DNA of 64,000 bases from a virus. Shown here in pieces: positions 4,571 through 33,454 of this stretch. The notes below the pieces were generated by a model that searched no databases, was not told where the DNA came from, and saw nothing but the letters and a program-made list of their open reading frames with translations. Numbering within the stretch: the first letter of the stretch is position 1; every line of letters begins with the position of its first letter. A program made the translations under genes and the position numbers. The stretch is from positions 32,001 to 96,000 of the IMG/VR virus record IMGVR_UViG_3300035670_000062, one strand, 5' to 3'.

Positions 4571-4577
4571 CTTCTAA

Positions 4578-4691
4578 GGGTAAAACGCTTCCTGAACCGA
4601 TGTTGGGAGGTTATTGAAGAGTGGTTAAAGGCCATAATATATCTTTGTCGGGGATATATAGTTTTGTAAAAGCTTCAATTTAGTTTTACCC
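4578..4691 (+). ncRNA. unidentified multibranch structured RNA
   Basis: Closing stem GGGTAAAAC/GTTTTACCC; internal ATTGAAG/CTTCAAT stem and several hairpins; located inside the tRNA array. Confidence 0.55.
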
Positions 4692-4701
4692 CCGGTACTT
4701 T

Positions 4702-4782: not shown

Positions 4783-4859
4783 AGACACATATACCCTCCG
4801 CCTGATACGCGGTAGAAAGGTTAATTGGTTGCATGTAGGTTCAAGTCCTACTGTGTCTA
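4783..4859 (+). tRNA. atypical tRNA-Ile(GAT) lacking a D arm at the normal position
   Basis: Perfect acceptor AGACACA/TGTGTCT, T arm GTAGG-TTCAAGT-CCTAC, anticodon ccgc-CTGATAC-gcgg, A73. Confidence 0.7.
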
Positions 4860-4864
4860 CATTT

Positions 4865-4947
4865 GGAAAATAAAATAGAGAGGATCTATAACCGCCTGCT
4901 AAGCGAGTTGTACCATCAGGTATGTGTTTCGAGTACACTGTTTTCCG
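4865..4947 (+). tRNA. tRNA-Ser(GCT)
   Basis: cgc-CTGCTAA-gcg, long variable arm, G73. Confidence 0.8.
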
Positions 4948-4949
4948 CT

Positions 4950-5673: not shown

Positions 5674-5850
5674 TATTTTACTGGATTGGGCCAGTTAAAA
5701 TAGTTGCTTAAGCCCAAAGCGTTATATTACATAATATAGATGCAATGCATGTAGTTTAGCAGCTTAGACACCATTCGAGTGAAAGCTGTAGGGATAGATA
5801 CCTAGTATTTTAAGAGAAGAATAGTAACTTAATCTCAAACCATCTATGCG
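5674..5850 (+). ncRNA. possible structured RNA with a 5' H-type pseudoknot
   Basis: TATTTTACTGG/CCAGTTAAAATA hairpin whose loop TTGGG matches CCCAA at 5713-5717; further stems downstream. Confidence 0.4.
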
Positions 5851-7315: not shown

Positions 7316-10300
7316 ATGAAACTAACAAAACTTTTAAGTCTATTTATAACGTTTATTGCTGTATTTATTAATATTAATACATACGCACAATACAACACAG
7401 GATTCGAAGGGTCAGATGAAACTAAAACATCCTATGCTTCTGGTGATGTTATTTTAAGTGGTATTCAATGGAATATGACTGAGGCATTGATTGGTACTCT
7501 TTCTAATGATAAAAAGATTGGTAGTCGATCCATGCGTATGAGGAGAAATGGTACTATTCCAGGAACAGCAACTATGTTGAATGATAAACCTGATGGGATT
7601 GGTACTATATCCTTTAAATATGCTAGATTTGGTACTGAAACAGGTCAGCCAACGTTATTTGTGGAATATAGTATAGATGGGGGTATTTCATGGACTCAGG
7701 CAGGATCATCCATAACATCTTTCCCAAATAGTTTAACAAATTGGTCAGCAACTATTAATCAGGGTGGGAATGTTAGGATTAGATTTAGAACAAATACTGG
7801 TGGTACCAGTCAAAGAAGGTTTAATATAGATGACATTCAATTAACCAACTACATACCAGCATGCTATCAACCAACTGCTTTTGGAACAGCATCAGCTCCA
7901 ACAACTCCAACTCCCCTTACAATAAGCACGTGTACATACGCAGGAGAATACAACACTATAAACTCTATAGTCTCAGGTCAAACTTATCAATTCGAATCTA
8001 GTATTGGAAGTGATTGGCTTGTTTTAACTGATGCTTCAAATAATCTTATTACTTCAGGCACCTCTCCTATAAATTGGACAGCAAACTTTAGTGGTACAGT
8101 TAGATTACATATTAGTACTAACTCTAATTGCGGGACTCAAAATATATGCAGAACAACCAAAGTAACTTGTCTTTCTTGCATTCCACCTCCTTGCATCCAA
8201 CCAACACCATTTATATCAATTAATGCCCCAACAACTCAGTCTCAACTAACAATAAGCACGTGTACTTATGCAGGGGAGTATAACACTATAAATTCTGTAG
8301 TTTCTGGGAGTACTTATCTATTTGAGTCTAGCATTAATACAGATTGGCTTGTTTTAACTGATGCTCAAAATAACCTACTCGCATCAGGTACCTCATCAAT
8401 TAACTGGACAGCAACCTTTAGTGGTACAGTTAGATTGCATGTTAGTGTGGATAATAACTGTGGCATTCAGAATGTATGTAGAACAACTAGTGTAATATGT
8501 ACTTCATGCATTCCAGTTCCTTGTACTCAACCTACACCATATGTGTCAATAAACGCACCTACAATTCCAACTCCCCAAATCATCACCAACTGTACATACG
8601 CTGGAGAATACAATACTATAAATTCTGTAGTTTCTGGGAGTACTTATCAATTCGAATCTAGCGTTGGAACTGACTGGCTTGTTTTAACCGATGCTTCAAA
8701 TAATGTAATCGTTTCTGGAAGTTCACCTATAAATTGGACGGCAAATTTTAATGGCACAGTCCGACTTCATGTTAGTACCAACTCTAATTGTGGAACTCAA
8801 AATGTATGTAGAACAACTACTATAACATGTAACTCTTGTCAATTTCCTCCTATTATAAGCTCTTTTACTCCAACTAATACTTGCTTTAACAGCAACGAAC
8901 AAATTATCATAACAGGACAAAACTTTACAAATGTTATAAGTGTAAGTTTAGGAAACAATAATGTTCAATCATTTGTTGTAAATAGCTCAACTCAGATAAC
9001 CATTTCAATTGGTTCAAGTATGTCTGGTTTTATTACTGTAGTTACACCTGGAGGTAGTACAACTAGTTCGAGTATTTTTACAGTAAATGCATCTCCCTCT
9101 CAGTCAGTTTCGGTTATTAATGTTGGATGTTTTGGTGATTCTAGTGGAAATATTAACCTAACTCCATCAGGTGGAAGTGCTCCATATTCCTTTAGTTGGA
9201 ACAATGGCGTCACTACTGAAGACTTAACAAACGTACCCGCTGGGATATATTCAGTAATTATCACCGATCAAAATAATTGTACCACTTCAACGTCAGTAAC
9301 AATAACCCAACCAACATCAACTTTAAACGATTCTATTGTTAAAACTAATGTTCTTATTTATGGTAACTCAACAGGAGCAATAGACTTAACAATGTCGGGT
9401 GGTACAGCTCCATACACATACTTATGGTCTAACGGAGCGACCACTGAAGACCTTACTGGTCTTGCCGCAGGAACCTACACTGTAACAGTTACTGATGCTA
9501 ATGGTTGTCAGCTTATAACAAGTGTAATAATTGAAGAACCTATTGATTGTACTATTGGTGATATTGAAGGGGCTCAAATATTATGTGGTTACTCTCAAGT
9601 CAGTTACACAATAGAAATACCTTCATGTGTTGTAAACTACTATTGGAATATGCCACAAGGAATGACGATAATTGATGAGGACACTGACGTAGCTGGATAT
9701 ATTACTGTGGATGTTTCAATTGATGAGTTAGATTTTGTATCGGGTGATATAATTTTTACTGCTGTTTATAGTGGAGGTACAAGTTCAGATACACTAGCTG
9801 TTAGTCAAATTCCATTTACACCAGAATTTATAACTACGGCTACTTGTGGTATACCTAATACTACTGTCACTTTTGAAGTAGAAGAAATTGAAGGTGTTGA
9901 AAGTTATGTTTGGACTCAACCAAATTTATCTAGTTTATTGTTTGGGCAAAATACAGACTCAGTTCGTGTAAAATTTGGTTCATTGTTTAATAGTGGAACA
10001 CTTTCGGTTGTTGCTACCAACCTTTGCGGTTCGAGTCCTGCTGCTGAATTCTTTATTTTAGCACCTCCCGCTACTGCAAATAATATTCAAGGACCAACTA
10101 CAATATGTTCAGTGGAGCCTTCACAACTTTATTATGTGGATTCGGTTGCCAATGCTTCCTACTACATTTGGGGTATGCCAAACGGAGCAACAATTATTTC
10201 AAATCCAGCTACTAATGATTCGGTTAATGTAATGTTCCAAAACTTTAGTTCGGGTGTAATTTCTGTGAAATCAGCAAATACCTGCGGAAGTTCCTCAATG

Positions 10301-11689
10301 AAATACTTAACTGTAACGGCTCCTTCTATTGCTGCACCAACGGGAATATCTGGTCCACAATCAGTTTGTTCGTATGTAGGAACAGGTCAGATTGTCAATT
10401 ACACAACCCCAATGGTGTCTGGAGTGACTAATTATATTTGGTCTATGCCTTCAGGAGCAACTATAAGTAATGGTTTGGGAACCAATACAATTGGTGTTCA
10501 GTTTGCTGCTGGATTTACAGGTGGTAACATAGGAGTGTCATTAAGTAATGGCTGTAGTTTAAGTCAACAATCAACATTACAATTATTGGGTGTGTCTGCA
10601 GGAGGTGCACCTCAATATATAGATCTTAATGGACAGTCTAGTGTTTGTTCGTTCATCGGTACTGGCAGCACTGTTTATAGTGTTACTCCTCCAATAGGAG
10701 CAAACAGTTATGTTTGGTCGGTACCTAATGATGCAACTATCATCAGTGGTTCAGGTACATCAAGTATTACTGTTTCGTTTGCTTCAAGTTTTGTAACCGG
10801 TACGATATCTGTTACCGTAATAACGAATTGTGGGACAACCTATCAACAATCTAAAACAGTGACAAAAATCCCTTCTGATGCTGGAGCGATAACTGGACCA
10901 AATTGTATTTTACTTGGATCAACTTATACCTATTCAATAGCAGCAGTTTCTGGAGCCACATCTTATCACTGGACGGTACCTTCAAATGCCACTATTACTA
11001 GTGGACAATGGACTTCAAGTATTACTGTACAATACTCAAATTCGTTTTCTGGTGGGGATATGACAGTTACACCTATTAATAGTTGTGGTAATGGAACATC
11101 CTCAACTATTACTATAGGTTTGGCAATAGTTGTACCGAGTCAAATTTTTGGTGCTACTTCGGTTTGTTTAGGTCAAACATTGACCTACTATGTTACACCT
11201 GTACCTACTGCCACATACTATATTTGGGCTGTTCCAGTTGGTATGGCTATAATTGGATATCAATATGGTGATAGTATCGTTGTGTCAGTAGATAATCAAT
11301 TTATTTCAGGTTTAATTTCTTGTAAATCTGTAAATGACTGTGGCAGTAGTCCAATGCGATACTCAAACACTATTTCAACCGGCAACTGTTCTACGGCTAT
11401 ATCAACATCACCTCAAGTTATTACTAAAATAAGTATAAATGAAAATAATGAAGTTGGATTATATCCAAATCCAACAAATGATAAAACATTTATTAAACTA
11501 ATAAACAATGAAGAAAAGTTAATAAAAATTATAATTTATGATAATAGTGGTAGATGTATATTTAATCAAGTTATAGATATAGATGGAGATTCAAACTTTA
11601 TAGATTTATCTATGTATAATTCTGGGGTTTATTTAGTTTTTATTATAACAAGTAATAGCAAGGATATATATAGAGTAATTAAAATTTAA
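7316..11689 (+). CDS. T9SS type-A sorting domain protein with SprB repeats, IPT/TIG and PKD-like domains (adhesin-like)
   Basis: Signal peptide; two SprB-type repeats (SGGSAPYSFSWNNGVTTEDLTNVPAGIYSVIITDQNNC); PKD-like YxWxVPxGA repeats; C-terminal LYPNPT...IYDNSG...SGVYLV...RVIK. Confidence 0.88.
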   Translation: MKLTKLLSLFITFIAVFININTYAQYNTGFEGSDETKTSYASGDVILSGIQWNMTEALIGTLSNDKKIGSRSMRMRRNGTIPGTATMLNDKPDGIGTISFKYARFGTETGQPTLFVEYSIDGGISWTQAGSSITSFPNSLTNWSATINQGGNVRIRFRTNTGGTSQRRFNIDDIQLTNYIPACYQPTAFGTASAPTTPTPLTISTCTYAGEYNTINSIVSGQTYQFESSIGSDWLVLTDASNNLITSGTSPINWTANFSGTVRLHISTNSNCGTQNICRTTKVTCLSCIPPPCIQPTPFISINAPTTQSQLTISTCTYAGEYNTINSVVSGSTYLFESSINTDWLVLTDAQNNLLASGTSSINWTATFSGTVRLHVSVDNNCGIQNVCRTTSVICTSCIPVPCTQPTPYVSINAPTIPTPQIITNCTYAGEYNTINSVVSGSTYQFESSVGTDWLVLTDASNNVIVSGSSPINWTANFNGTVRLHVSTNSNCGTQNVCRTTTITCNSCQFPPIISSFTPTNTCFNSNEQIIITGQNFTNVISVSLGNNNVQSFVVNSSTQITISIGSSMSGFITVVTPGGSTTSSSIFTVNASPSQSVSVINVGCFGDSSGNINLTPSGGSAPYSFSWNNGVTTEDLTNVPAGIYSVIITDQNNCTTSTSVTITQPTSTLNDSIVKTNVLIYGNSTGAIDLTMSGGTAPYTYLWSNGATTEDLTGLAAGTYTVTVTDANGCQLITSVIIEEPIDCTIGDIEGAQILCGYSQVSYTIEIPSCVVNYYWNMPQGMTIIDEDTDVAGYITVDVSIDELDFVSGDIIFTAVYSGGTSSDTLAVSQIPFTPEFITTATCGIPNTTVTFEVEEIEGVESYVWTQPNLSSLLFGQNTDSVRVKFGSLFNSGTLSVVATNLCGSSPAAEFFILAPPATANNIQGPTTICSVEPSQLYYVDSVANASYYIWGMPNGATIISNPATNDSVNVMFQNFSSGVISVKSANTCGSSSMKYLTVTAPSIAAPTGISGPQSVCSYVGTGQIVNYTTPMVSGVTNYIWSMPSGATISNGLGTNTIGVQFAAGFTGGNIGVSLSNGCSLSQQSTLQLLGVSAGGAPQYIDLNGQSSVCSFIGTGSTVYSVTPPIGANSYVWSVPNDATIISGSGTSSITVSFASSFVTGTISVTVITNCGTTYQQSKTVTKIPSDAGAITGPNCILLGSTYTYSIAAVSGATSYHWTVPSNATITSGQWTSSITVQYSNSFSGGDMTVTPINSCGNGTSSTITIGLAIVVPSQIFGATSVCLGQTLTYYVTPVPTATYYIWAVPVGMAIIGYQYGDSIVVSVDNQFISGLISCKSVNDCGSSPMRYSNTISTGNCSTAISTSPQVITKISINENNEVGLYPNPTNDKTFIKLINNEEKLIKIIIYDNSGRCIFNQVIDIDGDSNFIDLSMYNSGVYLVFIITSNSKDIYRVIKI
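7862..8851 (+). repeat. three tandem 330-bp (110 aa) Cys-containing domain repeats
   Basis: Units start at 7862, 8192 and 8522 (CTYAGEYNTINS...DWLVLTDA...NCGTQNVCRT). Confidence 0.9.
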
Positions 11690-24941: not shown

Positions 24942-27308
24942 ATGGCTGATTCTGAAGAAATAGAAAGAAATAAAGCATTACAAGAATCATTAGATTTAAT
25001 GGATGAATTATTATTTGCAAGTAGGGATTTTACCTCAGAAGTTAGAAAAGTTGCTAAATTACATTTCCAAAATAATGAACAAGTAAATGCTACTGTAAAA
25101 GGATTTAGAGATATTTCAAAATCAGTAGCTTCATATTCTACTATTATTAAAGATGTTTATAAAGGAACAGCATCAATAAGAACTCTTGAAAAAGAACAAG
25201 AAAAATTTTTAAAAACTAGAAAAAACTTTGAAGTCGAATTCAATCAAGCTCTTGGTTCAATAAAACTCACAGAAGAACAAATTAATAAAATAAAAAAAGG
25301 ACAATTAGATGTATTTGCTGCTATAGGGGATAAGGGAAGTGAATTTGGAGATCAAACTAATAAGCTTACAGAAGTACAATTTTCACTTTTAGAATTATAC
25401 CAGGAACAATTAAGTATATTAAGGGAAGAGAATGAAGCAATGGAAGAGGCTTCTCGAAGAGCTAAAAATATTGAAGCATCTATGGGAGGGGTAGGAACTG
25501 CATTTGAAGGAATAGAAGGAGTCATGGATAAACTTGGACTTGGAAGTTTAAGTAAAAAAATGGGATTTGCTAAAGCACAAGCAGACATGAAAGAACTAGC
25601 AGCAGAGATTACAGATGGTGGAGATAGAAGTGCTACATTAGGAGAAAAATTTAAAATAGCAGGAGCAGGTATAAAATCCATGGCTTCAAGTTTAGCATCA
25701 GCTTTTGGACCTATGGCTATAGCATTGATTGTTATAACACAAATAGTAAAAGCATTTAAGGCATTAGATGAACAATCAGGAAAACTAGCTAAAAGTATGG
25801 GTATATCATATAATGAAGCAGTAAATCTAAATGCAGAATTTAGAGACATGGCTTCTAATTATGGAGATTCACTAGTTACTTCTAAAGATATAGCAGAGTC
25901 CCAATCTAAATTAAACGAATTATTTGGAACAGGAGTTAAATTTTCAGGAGAAATGGCTGCTGAATTCTCATCAGTCCAAAAAAGATTAGACTTGTCAGAT
26001 GAAGCTATGAAATTATTTACTAAAAATCAATTAATTTCTGGTAAAAGTATTAAAACTCAATTAAAAGATGTCAATGCTACTACATTAAAAATGAATGAAC
26101 AATATGGTTTAGGTTTAAGTTTTAAACAAGTTCAAGAAGGTATAAGCAAAGCATCTAACGCAGTACAATTAACAAATAAAGGAAATGTAAAAGAACTTAC
26201 AAAAGCTGTTTTTGCTGCTAAAAATTTAGGAGTAGAAATGTCTAAAGTAGAAGCTATATCAAACAGTTTATTAGATTTTGAATCTTCAATAGCATCTGAA
26301 CTTGAAGCTGAATTACTGTTAGGTAAAGACATAAATCTTGAAACAGCTAGACAAGCAGCATTACAAGGAGATGTAGCTAAAGTAGCTGATGAAGTTATGA
26401 AAAATAAAGCTATAATGAATGCTTTCGACACTAAAAATGTTATAGCACAAGAAGCAGCAGCTAAAGCATTAGGTATGAATAGAGATGAATTAGCTGACAT
26501 GATAATGCAACAAAAACAATTAGAAGGTATAAGAAAAAATGGCTTTGAAAATATGGCCGCTGCTCAGGAAGAATATAATAAATTAAGAGCACAAGGCATG
26601 TCTGCCGAGGAAGCAGCAGCTAAAATAGGAGATAAATCATTACAAGATCAACTAGAATCAGTGTCAGTAGCACAAAACCTTGAAGCAGTAATGGCTTCTA
26701 TACAAGAAATATTTGTAGGTATGGTTGAACCTATATTGATGGCAGTAAATTCAATGATAGAATTAGTTGGTGGAGCTGATAATTTGGCTGCTATATTAGT
26801 AACAATATTAGGTATTTACACAGCTATAAAATTAGCTATACTAGGAGCTAATATGGCGGCAACTATAGGATTAGCTCTTAAGAAAAAAGAAGTAAAAGAA
26901 GAAAAATCAAAAGCATTAGCATCAGCTGGCAGTATTACTTCAGCTTTTATTCTAAATCCAATAGCAGCAGGTATTGGATTAATAGCAGGATTAGCAGCAA
27001 CAGCCTTGGTTATTAGTCAAATGAAAGATGGTATGATTGATCCTAAAGGAGGAATGATAGTTTCAGGAGAAAAAGGTACAATCCAATTAGATAAAGAAGA
27101 TAGTATAATAGCAGGAACAAATTTATTTGGAGGAGGAAATGGAAAAAATCAAACATCAAATAACAATCAAGATAATTCTCAAATAATAGCCCTACTCCAA
27201 CAACAAAACCAACTACTGAGACAAATGTTATCTAAATCTACAACATTAGAAATGAATGGAGATAAAGTAGGTCAAGGTATCCAAAAGGCAGACAGAGCAA
27301 TACAATAA
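24942..27308 (+). CDS. tape measure protein
   Basis: 788 aa Ala-rich helical protein with hydrophobic stretches, downstream of the chaperone pair. Confidence 0.82.
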   Translation: MADSEEIERNKALQESLDLMDELLFASRDFTSEVRKVAKLHFQNNEQVNATVKGFRDISKSVASYSTIIKDVYKGTASIRTLEKEQEKFLKTRKNFEVEFNQALGSIKLTEEQINKIKKGQLDVFAAIGDKGSEFGDQTNKLTEVQFSLLELYQEQLSILREENEAMEEASRRAKNIEASMGGVGTAFEGIEGVMDKLGLGSLSKKMGFAKAQADMKELAAEITDGGDRSATLGEKFKIAGAGIKSMASSLASAFGPMAIALIVITQIVKAFKALDEQSGKLAKSMGISYNEAVNLNAEFRDMASNYGDSLVTSKDIAESQSKLNELFGTGVKFSGEMAAEFSSVQKRLDLSDEAMKLFTKNQLISGKSIKTQLKDVNATTLKMNEQYGLGLSFKQVQEGISKASNAVQLTNKGNVKELTKAVFAAKNLGVEMSKVEAISNSLLDFESSIASELEAELLLGKDINLETARQAALQGDVAKVADEVMKNKAIMNAFDTKNVIAQEAAAKALGMNRDELADMIMQQKQLEGIRKNGFENMAAAQEEYNKLRAQGMSAEEAAAKIGDKSLQDQLESVSVAQNLEAVMASIQEIFVGMVEPILMAVNSMIELVGGADNLAAILVTILGIYTAIKLAILGANMAATIGLALKKKEVKEEKSKALASAGSITSAFILNPIAAGIGLIAGLAATALVISQMKDGMIDPKGGMIVSGEKGTIQLDKEDSIIAGTNLFGGGNGKNQTSNNNQDNSQIIALLQQQNQLLRQMLSKSTTLEMNGDKVGQGIQKADRAIQ

Positions 27309-31363: not shown

Positions 31364-33454
31364 ATGAGTAAGAAAATAGAATTTAATATAAATAATATAG
31401 GACTTAATGAAATAGGTAAAACATTAAATCCAACTATAGAAGATACTTCCGAGAATGTGAGGAATAATTATATGAATGAATGGAATACTAATGTTACATA
31501 CCCCATATACACTCCCGAAATTGACTCATCAGATATAATAAAACTATTTATTAAAAATGAAGAAGAAAGTTTTTTTATTAGATTAGGTACTTTATTAGGA
31601 TTCATTAATGATAAAATAATTCCTAAGATAGAATCAACCTCCCAACCATTAATTACTATAGATACTGATGAAAAAACTAACATATGTTATGTTATAGATA
31701 ATATTATATCTAACGATATAAGAAAAGTAATAATAAAAAATGATAGATTTTATAATGGAACTGAAACTGAAGATTTTTTATTTACTGGGTTAAATGATTT
31801 TATAGTAGAAGAGTATGATAGTAGTACATTATATGGTCAAATAATGAACATTTATATAAATTTTAATGAAGTGTTAACGTTATTTGATAATGTAGATGAA
31901 AAAAATGAAATTAATTTATTTGAAATTTTATCCTCTATATGTAAAATGATAAATCAATGTTTAGGAAATGTAAATAATTTAGAACCTATAATTGATGAAG
32001 AAAATATTACTGTAAAAATTATTGATCAAACACCTATTCCAAATATAGATCTAATAGTTAAAAAACTAAACCCTCAATACCTACAACCAGAAGATAATAA
32101 AGAAGTAATATTACAATTATATGGATATAATAATAATAAATCTAACTTTATAAGAAATATAAATCTTGTTACTGAAATCTCAAAAAACTACTCAACGATG
32201 ATATCCATTGGTGCTACATCTAATGGAGCTATTCCAGGAGCTGAATCAACAGCATTTTCAAAATGGAATGTAGGACTAACAGACCGATTTAAAACTCAAA
32301 TAATAGATGCCAATGCGAATACGGGCTCATTAGAAGACCAGAACTCAGTAGTAATAAATAATTATATAGATTTTATTGCTCAAACATTCCTCAAAATAGG
32401 ATTAAATCAATCCCCACCATTTGAAGTAAACACAGAAGTAGTAGATACTAACACTACAGTAATAGAAAACTTTTACAAATACGCTCAAGCTCAATCTTCA
32501 AAAAATGAAGAAAATTCAATTGAAAGTTCAGTAGGATTCTTACCATTTAATTTAAAAATAGAAATGGATGGAATAGGAGGTATCAAAATATATAATAGAG
32601 TAAAAACAGACACTAGATTTCTCCCATCCAACTACCCAGATACTTTACAATTTATAATAACTGGAGTGAACCATAAGATATCAGATAATGATTGGGTAAC
32701 ATCATTAGAAACAATAGCAACTATAGATAATAATCAAGGTAAAAAAAATATATCTGTAAAAGAAATATTAAAAAATTATTCTACTCAAATAGCAATTATA
32801 CAACAACGACAAGCATTAGAAGCTAGAAACCAAAGTACTCGAAGACAAGACTCTTACAACAATTCAGATTGTTCAGAAGATTCTAAAATACCACTATCAG
32901 ATAATTATAATTTAGCACAACTTTCATGTAATACCGATTATGCTAAATATTCATTACCTAAAATAAAAAAAACAGGAAATTCCTATTATGATCCTTCAAG
33001 AGAAGAAATAATTCAAAATCTTACACAATTAGCAAAAAATATTTTAGAACCATTAAGAAAAAATTACCTTATAAATAATGAAAATGATATCTCAATAACA
33101 GCAGGATATAGGAATCAAGGTAAAATAAGCCAACATGAAATAGGTCAAGCGGTAGATATCCAATTTTATTCCATAAGAAAACAATCTATATCTGACCAAA
33201 ACAGATTAATGTTAGAAAGAGCTAAAGAAATTGAAAAATTATTATTTCCAAATTACGATGATTTTATATTAGAATATAAAATAATAGGTACACAACAACC
33301 ATGGATTCATATATCTTACAGAACAAACCCATCACCACGTAAGCAAAAACGGACAGCTATTACGTATGGAGACCCCCAAAAGCCTACAGTAGAATATTTT
33401 GCTGGATTTCTTAGTTTTGAGGATGCTAAAAAAAAGATGTCAAAAAATAAATAA
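31364..33454 (+). CDS. tail/baseplate hub protein with C-terminal peptidase M15
   Basis: ITAGYR...SQHEIGQAVDI...WIHISY zinc-peptidase motifs; EMDGIGGIKI...V.H.I..NDW.T hub-like segment. Confidence 0.75.
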   Translation: MSKKIEFNINNIGLNEIGKTLNPTIEDTSENVRNNYMNEWNTNVTYPIYTPEIDSSDIIKLFIKNEEESFFIRLGTLLGFINDKIIPKIESTSQPLITIDTDEKTNICYVIDNIISNDIRKVIIKNDRFYNGTETEDFLFTGLNDFIVEEYDSSTLYGQIMNIYINFNEVLTLFDNVDEKNEINLFEILSSICKMINQCLGNVNNLEPIIDEENITVKIIDQTPIPNIDLIVKKLNPQYLQPEDNKEVILQLYGYNNNKSNFIRNINLVTEISKNYSTMISIGATSNGAIPGAESTAFSKWNVGLTDRFKTQIIDANANTGSLEDQNSVVINNYIDFIAQTFLKIGLNQSPPFEVNTEVVDTNTTVIENFYKYAQAQSSKNEENSIESSVGFLPFNLKIEMDGIGGIKIYNRVKTDTRFLPSNYPDTLQFIITGVNHKISDNDWVTSLETIATIDNNQGKKNISVKEILKNYSTQIAIIQQRQALEARNQSTRRQDSYNNSDCSEDSKIPLSDNYNLAQLSCNTDYAKYSLPKIKKTGNSYYDPSREEIIQNLTQLAKNILEPLRKNYLINNENDISITAGYRNQGKISQHEIGQAVDIQFYSIRKQSISDQNRLMLERAKEIEKLLFPNYDDFILEYKIIGTQQPWIHISYRTNPSPRKQKRTAITYGDPQKPTVEYFAGFLSFEDAKKKMSKNK

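Follow-up and report, generated by a model that had tools for sequence, protein, structure and literature searches.

What does a gene encode that has the acceptor stem, T arm and anticodon loop of a tRNA and carries a D-loop-like segment on the far side of its anticodon arm? Such a gene occupies positions 4783-4859 on the plus strand of the window, the whole 64,000-nucleotide (nt) stretch of DNA analysed here, which spans positions 32,001 to 96,000 of the IMG/VR virus record IMGVR_UViG_3300035670_000062. Comparison with hundreds of relatives suggests that the element is very probably a functional, topologically rewired tRNA-Ile(GAU) and belongs to a large phage-specific family in which the two strands of the D stem flank the anticodon arm. 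Its parts, numbered from its first nucleotide wherever element positions are given, are as follows.

4783-4859, plus strand: whole element, 77 nt, within a phage tRNA array.
4783-4789, plus strand: 5′ strand of the acceptor stem (element positions 1-7), with seven of seven pairs to 4852-4858.
4790-4792, plus strand: U8, A9 and U10; U8 and A9 are invariant (UA in 215 of 215 members of the family).
4793-4795, plus strand: ACC, 5′ strand of a 3-bp replacement for the D stem (canonical positions 23-25), pairing with GGU at 4819-4821.
4796, plus strand: C14, the one nucleotide that separates this helix from the anticodon stem; conserved as C in 214 of 215 members.
4797-4813, plus strand: anticodon arm, made of a U-U mismatch and four base pairs, CCGC (4798-4801) with GCGG (4809-4812), around the loop CUGAUAC (4802-4808).
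4804-4806, plus strand: anticodon GAT, inside the CUGAUAC loop.
4814-4818, plus strand: 5-nt linker, A followed by GAAA, leading from the anticodon stem to the helix; GAAA is present in 215 of 215 pattern-selected members and variable in divergent members.
4819-4822, plus strand: GGU and U40, 3′ strand of the D-stem-like helix (canonical positions 10-13), recognized by covariation and RNAalifold.
4823-4833, plus strand: putative relocated D loop, A41 to A51, in which A41 would correspond to A14, A42 to R15, G45 and G46 (4827-4828) to G18 and G19, and U47 to position 20.
4834, plus strand: U52, partner of A42 by covariation, directly 5′ of the T stem (position 48 of the Levitt pair).
4835-4851, plus strand: T arm, GUAGG (4835-4839) with CCUAC (4847-4851), loop UUCAAGU.
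4852-4859, plus strand: 3′ strand of the acceptor stem (4852-4858) and the discriminator A (4859), read from the sequence.

Measured against a canonical tRNA, the element has the expected acceptor stem (7 bp, discriminator unpaired) and T arm (5 bp, with UUCRANY as its 7-nt loop), and its anticodon arm carries U33 and a purine at position 37 in a loop of 7 nt, above a stem of four Watson-Crick pairs and the U-U mismatch. Equivalents of the R15-Y48 and G19-C56 contacts are also present, apparently supplied by the relocated loop; the D hairpin that normally separates position 9 from the anticodon arm is missing. The acceptor and anticodon stems are separated by 8 nt (4790-4797), and 22 nt (4813-4834), including UAAUUGGUU, lie 3′ of the anticodon stem. 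A first-pass annotation had described exactly this layout, from the perfect acceptor and T arms and the CTGATAC loop to the 8-nt and 22-nt asymmetry, and had it right throughout. CCA is absent from the gene, the bases after the discriminator being CAT.

The same annotation had proposed an alternative tRNA fold. The D-loop-like segment does lie 3′ of the anticodon arm, as it held, but the 8 and 22 nt are not loose connectors: they contain the ACC/GGU helix and what appears to be a true D loop. The minimum-free-energy fold of the single sequence joins ACC (4793-4795) to GGU (4819-4821) around the anticodon hairpin. Two other foldings were rejected. A local D hairpin within 4813-4834 appears neither in the fold nor in the covariation nor in the RNAalifold structure, and a D stem formed by UACC and GGUA, which would enclose CUGAUAC as a giant D loop, leaves no anticodon arm; a relative in the Streptomyces phage EGole has no GGUA, and covariation backs the CUGAUAC hairpin.

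Five pattern scans of IMG/VR viral contigs returned more than 340 loci of the same layout, and two of the scans individually returned more than 120 loci each. Removal of duplicates leaves at least 215 distinct sequences of 75-80 nt, mostly 77. It had been thought that homologues with normal cloverleaves might expose the element as a rearrangement unique to this DNA or as a fault of assembly. The outcome is the opposite: the homologues carry the same rearrangement, and assembly error is ruled out because the exact sequence of the element recurs in a contig from a second sample. A scan of 185,579 prokaryotic species genomes (596 Gb) gave six matches, all on contigs of metagenome-assembled genomes (MAGs), and the family is therefore essentially viral. 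Among cultured phages, BLAST matches the element to about 37 Streptomyces phage records, together with one 462-kb uncultured phage. Cultured carriers of the family include Streptomyces phages of the BE cluster (with three or four copies in Mildred21), Microbacterium phages and the crAss-like Kehishuvirus 'tikkala', a phage of Bacteroides cellulosilyticus, where an Ile member (OQ198717, 95577-95653) sits in an unannotated 90-nt gap of the tRNA array.

More distant relatives were recovered with R1, a covariance model built in this analysis. It gives the window element 91.3 bits, that element being one of its training sequences, versus less than 30 bits for canonical tRNAs. A search of 100 sources (the window and 99 loci, about 0.94 Mb) added divergent members scoring 29-53 bits at loci L016 (5182-5262 and 5269-5347), L026 (872-950), L100 (2956-3032 and 5066-5139), L051 (5174-5253) and L072 (7169-7245). 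Their linkers differ from GAAA and their loops are longer; their anticodons are still those of Ile or Arg only. The Salmonella phage Felix O1 carries a divergent Arg member (NC_005282.1, 25951-26029; 47.1 bits with R1) with the helix CUC/GAG, the anticodon UCU and an A after the GG of the loop. This Felix O1 tRNA-Arg(UCU) is unannotated, and an annotated HNH endonuclease open reading frame (ORF; 26003-26395) begins inside it, so that the start codon of the ORF may be mis-set. Two weaker R1 matches of 27-28 bits, at L033 (4658-4728) and L074 (1242-1315), look D-armless, with anticodon loops possibly bearing GUA and CAA, and may be further odd phage tRNAs.

The secondary structure is carried by compensatory change. 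In a gapless alignment of 120 distinct members, 99.2% of the 2520 pair cells are standard pairs, versus 62.3% in shuffled controls and at most 46% when the partners are slid, and 20 of the 21 pairs show changes on both sides. The acceptor stem is paired in 100% of cells, with double changes in all seven pairs. The T arm is paired in 97.7% of cells; four of its five pairs covary, and the loop-adjacent G-C pair is invariant. Four pairs of the anticodon stem covary around a loop in which U33 is invariant and A37 nearly so. RNAalifold returns the same structure unprompted, including a helix between positions 11-13 and 37-39, which is paired in 100% of cells.

This last helix was the subject of a separate scan in which position 38 was forced to be a base other than G and the 5′ strand was left unconstrained. 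In the members returned, the 5′ strand had changed to match: CUC/GAG in 40, CGG/CCG in 15, CGC/GCG in three, CAC/GUG in two, and AAC/GUU and AGG/CCU in one each. The R1 search added CCC/GGG, CCG/CGG and GCC/GGC. The helix that encloses the anticodon arm is real, as covariation in the relatives proves, and the window element has each mark of the rewired family: the 11-13/37-39 helix, the A-NNN-GG loop and a 48-like base before the T stem. Next to the helix, U10 and U40 form a conserved U-U mismatch at the place of the canonical 13-22 pair (UU in 203 of 215 members). C14 would be the counterpart of canonical position 26, and the GAAA linker possibly makes groove contacts.

Couplings outside the helices, obtained by mutual-information analysis and direct counts across the 215 sequences, suggest where the 3′ segment lies in space. 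Positions 42 and 52 are A-U in 156 sequences, G-C in 39 and another combination in 20, which is the pattern of the R15-Y48 Levitt pair. Position 46, the second G of the loop, is coupled to the C of the T loop: GG accompanies UUC in 200 sequences and GA accompanies UUU in ten of ten, as expected of a compensatory G19-C56 elbow pair, and the divergent member at L051 again couples GA with a UUUGA T loop. AG occurs with UGC in three of three cases, which fits an 18-55 contact. Because of the 42-52 and 46/T-loop couplings, the segment is read as a working D loop with 15-48-like and 19-56-like contacts. U8 and the A14-like A41 are both invariant, which is consistent with a U8-A14-type contact between them and uninformative for covariation. 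An L-shape would be sterically plausible, with the anticodon arm leaving from the 25/10-type end of the helix and the loop leaving toward the elbow.

The family also carries coupled marks of tRNA identity. With no anticodon prescribed in the patterns, the 215 anticodons comprise GAU (59), UAU (61), CAU (15) and 80 of Arg type, the latter divided among ACG (61), UCU (12), CCU (3), UCG (2), GCG (1) and CCG (1). In the loop, GG is followed by A in each of the 80 Arg members and by U in 131 of the 135 members with Ile or CAU anticodons; every one of these 135 also has A as its discriminator, a position that is G, A or U in Arg members. In E. coli, A20 is the main determinant for arginyl-tRNA synthetase (ArgRS). 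The coupling between the anticodon and the base after GG argues that the loop sits at the place of a D loop and that the RNAs are probably charged.

For the isoleucine branch, the E. coli determinants for isoleucyl-tRNA synthetase (IleRS), reportedly set out by Nureki et al. in 1994, are said to be GAU, A37, A73, C4-G69, C29-G41 and U12-A23. The window element has the anticodon GAU, A37 and A73 of this set; it also has C4-G, a C-G pair at what would be the 29-41 equivalent and U39-A11 at what would be the 12-23 equivalent, pairs that vary across the family. The first acceptor pair of Ile members is C-G in 51, A-U in 23, U-A in 19, G-U in 16 and G-C in nine. Directly 3′ of the discriminator, 78 of 79 members have a C, and only about 15% encode CCA in full.

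No amino acid other than Ile and Arg was found on the scaffold, either in the pattern scans or in the R1 search of the 100 sources. Four scan matches combine A35 with a base other than U36, and all four are devoid of tRNA features, so that none is a true member. Ile and Arg members share the same helix types (79 and 74 on ACC/GGU, 35 and five on CUC/GAG, and both on CGC/GCG), and for this reason a purely genealogical cause for the restriction to two amino acids looks less likely than a functional one.

The genomic setting is a tRNA array. The element begins 8 nt 3′ of a tRNA-Asn gene and ends 5 nt 5′ of the next tRNA-like gene, and members in general lie in such arrays, accompanied by a median of eight further tRNAs. 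Only ten of 78 Ile loci and one of 74 Arg loci have a canonical tRNA of matching anticodon as well. The genome of the window phage (113 kb, 27.9% GC, about 69% complete) yields 20 canonical tRNAs in ARAGORN, none of them Ile GAU. In its long ORFs, Ile is the commonest amino acid (9.2% of codons), AUU and AUC together accounting for 1355 codons. The 113-kb sequence, which is about 69% complete, yielded no gene for an IleRS or a CCA-adding enzyme; since CCA is not encoded either, host enzymes would have to mature and charge the element.

Taken as a tRNA, the element would be cut from the array, given its CCA and charged by host enzymes, presumably including the host IleRS, and would serve on the ribosome as an elongator reading AUU and AUC. 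Its chain would run from U8-A9 into ACC, normally the 3′ half of the D stem, then through one spacer into the anticodon arm, and from there through the GAAA linker into GGU, normally the 5′ half of the D stem, followed by the D loop, the 48-like base and the T stem. In canonical terms, U10-A11-C12-C13 would be strand 22-25, G37-G38-U39-U40 strand 10-13, A41-A51 the D loop (14-21) and U52 position 48. The net change would thus be the shift of a single block, the D-stem 5′ strand with the D loop, from the 5′ to the 3′ side of the anticodon arm; the helix would keep its stacking on the anticodon stem, and the loop its lock on the T loop.

Standard software does not recognize such a gene, as the first-pass annotation had anticipated. 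ARAGORN with default settings does not call it in the window, and relaxed thresholds, mitochondrial mode and intron mode give no sensible call for 4783-4859; a 92-nt 'tRNA-???' with a 4-base anticodon, offered at -ps70, was discarded as not sensible. The Rfam tRNA model RF00005 leaves the element unreported in a default run over the whole window. With sensitive filters the model gives 32.0 bits (cut-off 29), dropping the D arm through deletion of 15 model positions, placing an 18-nt insertion in the variable region and taking the CUGAUAC stretch as the anticodon arm. Across the family, ARAGORN failed on 151 of 152 members. Homologues are unannotated in Felix O1, in one crAss-like phage and in nearly all of about 80 Streptomyces phage records. 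An annotated one, gene 108 of EGole (MK494112.1, 75265-75341; locus L001, 594-670), directly 3′ of a nucleotidyltransferase gene, is entered as a tRNA-Leu for the codon UUA and is a GAU member of the rewired family. The tRNA-Leu(UAA) reading was rejected: UAA would be the unpaired U40-A41-A42 of the relocated D loop, which forms no hairpin, and A42 varies with the 15-48-like pair.

Several observations weigh against a functional tRNA-Ile(GAU). The ACC/GGU helix is invariant in the window's own subfamily and is supported by the variation seen in other subfamilies; beside the conserved U-U mismatch, the anticodon stem has just four Watson-Crick pairs; and G1-C72 is rare among Ile members (nine of 120), which is unusual for bacterial tRNAs. 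The three AG/UGC cases may be one lineage. The three-dimensional fold is deduced from covariation alone. At roughly one Ile locus in eight, the rewired form shares the supply with a canonical tRNA-Ile(GAU). Lastly, a working tRNA does not in itself explain why the scaffold is used for Ile and Arg only.

Could the RNA then serve some purpose other than decoding? A tRNA mimic might be processed and then titrate or divert some factor of the host, for instance an anticodon nuclease, a tRNA-targeting toxin, a modification enzyme or a T-box. Counteracting defences aimed at tRNAs is a known role of phage tRNAs, and a decoy would suit both a non-canonical architecture specific to phages (the six MAG-contig matches in 185,579 prokaryotic genomes) and the loci at which a canonical tRNA-Ile(GAU) is also present. 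It is nevertheless improbable, for a decoy aimed at a single factor needs neither an isoacceptor set of GAU, UAU and CAU with ACG, UCU, CCU, UCG, CCG and GCG nor synthetase determinants linked to the anticodon (the A20-like base in 80 of 80 Arg members, A73 in 135 of 135 Ile or CAU members), and the element fills the only AUU/AUC gap of the window phage. Still harder to sustain is a role as processing punctuation, in which the acceptor/T half would recruit RNase P and RNase Z and the released RNA would do nothing further. The close spacing after tRNA-Asn and before the next tRNA-like gene, and the conserved elbow that RNase P recognizes, count in its favour; the neighbouring tRNAs have processing signals of their own, however, and punctuation would not keep the U33/A37 loop, the Ile/Arg-only anticodons or the coupled A20-like base and discriminator. 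This makes it very unlikely. A decayed pseudogene, a one-off rearrangement, an assembly artefact or a tRNA-Leu(UAA) might be suspected from the rejection of the element by default finders and from the entry for EGole gene 108. These are already refuted for practical purposes by the hundreds of compensated relatives, the identical second-sample sequence and the unpaired UAA of EGole. The first-pass annotation had likewise argued for an intact tRNA-Ile(GAU)-type gene rather than decay, a view that the compensatory changes and conserved identity features uphold.

The remaining proposal is a refinement of the functional tRNA-Ile(GAU) more than a true alternative to it: a working tRNA rewired to escape a host defence or enzyme that reads the normal D arm, for example by resisting a nuclease. 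The restriction of the family to phages would fit, as would the occurrence of just two amino acids, both of them on ACC/GGU, CUC/GAG and CGC/GCG, which suggests a functional filter beyond descent. On the other hand, no defence system was linked to the family and no nuclease was identified whose specific targets are the tRNAs of both Ile and Arg, and the limit to two amino acids could equally reflect how far synthetases tolerate the scaffold. Escape is thus a possible but doubtful addition, and a functional, rewired tRNA-Ile(GAU) stands as the best explanation with or without it.

What the family would mean for translation goes beyond this one gene. The evidence leans toward phages maintaining a widespread class of non-cloverleaf, translationally active tRNAs, confined to Ile and Arg, accepted by host IleRS and ArgRS, EF-Tu and ribosomes, and perhaps selected for evading host factors that read the D arm. 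To our knowledge, the cloverleaf has been treated as universal for bacterial-type translation. If the proposal is true, no elongator tRNA of non-cloverleaf architecture would have been shown to work with the bacterial machinery before this one, and that machinery would read the L-shape and not the cloverleaf wiring, the same tertiary contacts being reached through another strand order. The scaffold would also be a natural starting point for orthogonal tRNA engineering, and its use for Ile and Arg only may reflect synthetase tolerance or host defences. In practical terms, routine annotation is blind to rewired genes, so that phage tRNA counts and analyses of codon usage and tRNA supply are biased; the window phage would be wrongly scored as having no tRNA for its commonest amino acid.

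The surroundings of the element hold further features. Directly 3′ of it, an 84-nt class II-like candidate tRNA-Ser(GCU) lies at 4865-4948 on the plus strand, with a D arm, a variable arm of GUACC and GGUAU, a 4-bp T stem and only three clean pairs in the anticodon stem. ARAGORN calls it only at -ps80, and Rfam gives no match even at E values up to 10. With the candidate Ser and Ile genes, the phage would serve all amino acids but Ala. A 130-nt gap between tRNA-Tyr and tRNA-Asn (4572-4701, plus strand) has no tRNA or Rfam call, and about 100 nt past the last tRNA of the array, at 5680-5745 on the plus strand, is a Pistol ribozyme (RF02679; 55.8 bits against a cut-off of 34.5). An ATP-dependent DNA ligase (PF01068 and an OB domain) is encoded upstream of the array at 1774-2847 on the plus strand. 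At 7316-11689, also on the plus strand, a 1457-aa ORF with seven PKD-like domains, SprB repeats and a type IX secretion C-terminal sorting domain is unusual cargo for a phage; its domains hint at a member of the Bacteroidota as host.

How does the element compare with systems already described? No published description of the rewired architecture was found in the open-access literature, which leaves its unpublished status unproven, and a 2020 review of non-canonical tRNAs does not mention phages (PMC7609411). What appears new is the Ile branch, the union of Ile and Arg on one scaffold, the proof of the helix by covariation, and the couplings at 15-48, 19-56 and position 20. Canonical bacterial and phage tRNA-Ile(GAU) has the same 7-bp acceptor stem, A73, 5-bp T arm with UUCRANY, 7-nt loop with U33, GAU and A37, and length of 77 nt, as well as U8, A14, R15-Y48, G18 and G19-C56, all with equivalents here. 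The element differs from it in that the strands of the D stem flank the anticodon arm and the D loop lies 3′ of that arm.

Class II tRNAs (Leu, Ser and bacterial Tyr) share with the element a long stretch between anticodon and T arm. In them, this stretch forms a hairpin of its own beside a normal D arm, whereas in the element it pairs with the 5′ connector and carries D-loop motifs, which places the element outside the class. Circularly permuted and split tRNA genes, as in Cyanidioschyzon merolae and Nanoarchaeum, are broken at the level of the gene, and processing restores a canonical mature tRNA. They resemble the element in that the order of parts in the DNA departs from the cloverleaf; the acceptor ends of the element are normal, however, and its rearranged order would have to persist in the mature RNA.

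The D-armless mitochondrial tRNAs of animals, such as mitochondrial tRNA-Ser(AGY) and nematode mitochondrial tRNA-Ser, offer a structural parallel. As portrayed in the review, they also have no D hairpin, a short connector between acceptor and anticodon stems and a lengthened anticodon helix; their variable region is short, they have no GG/T-loop lock at the elbow, and they are flexible (PMC7609411). The element does not belong with them: its region of 21-22 nt would supply a full D loop with 15-48-like and 19-56-like contacts. Moreover, the mitochondrial forms use specialised mitochondrial machinery, while the phage element would have to use that of bacteria. The Felix O1 tRNA-Arg, finally, is built on the same scaffold and differs in its amino acid, its longer and different linker and its greater divergence; next to it, the window element, whose GG is followed by U and whose discriminator is A, represents the Ile branch.

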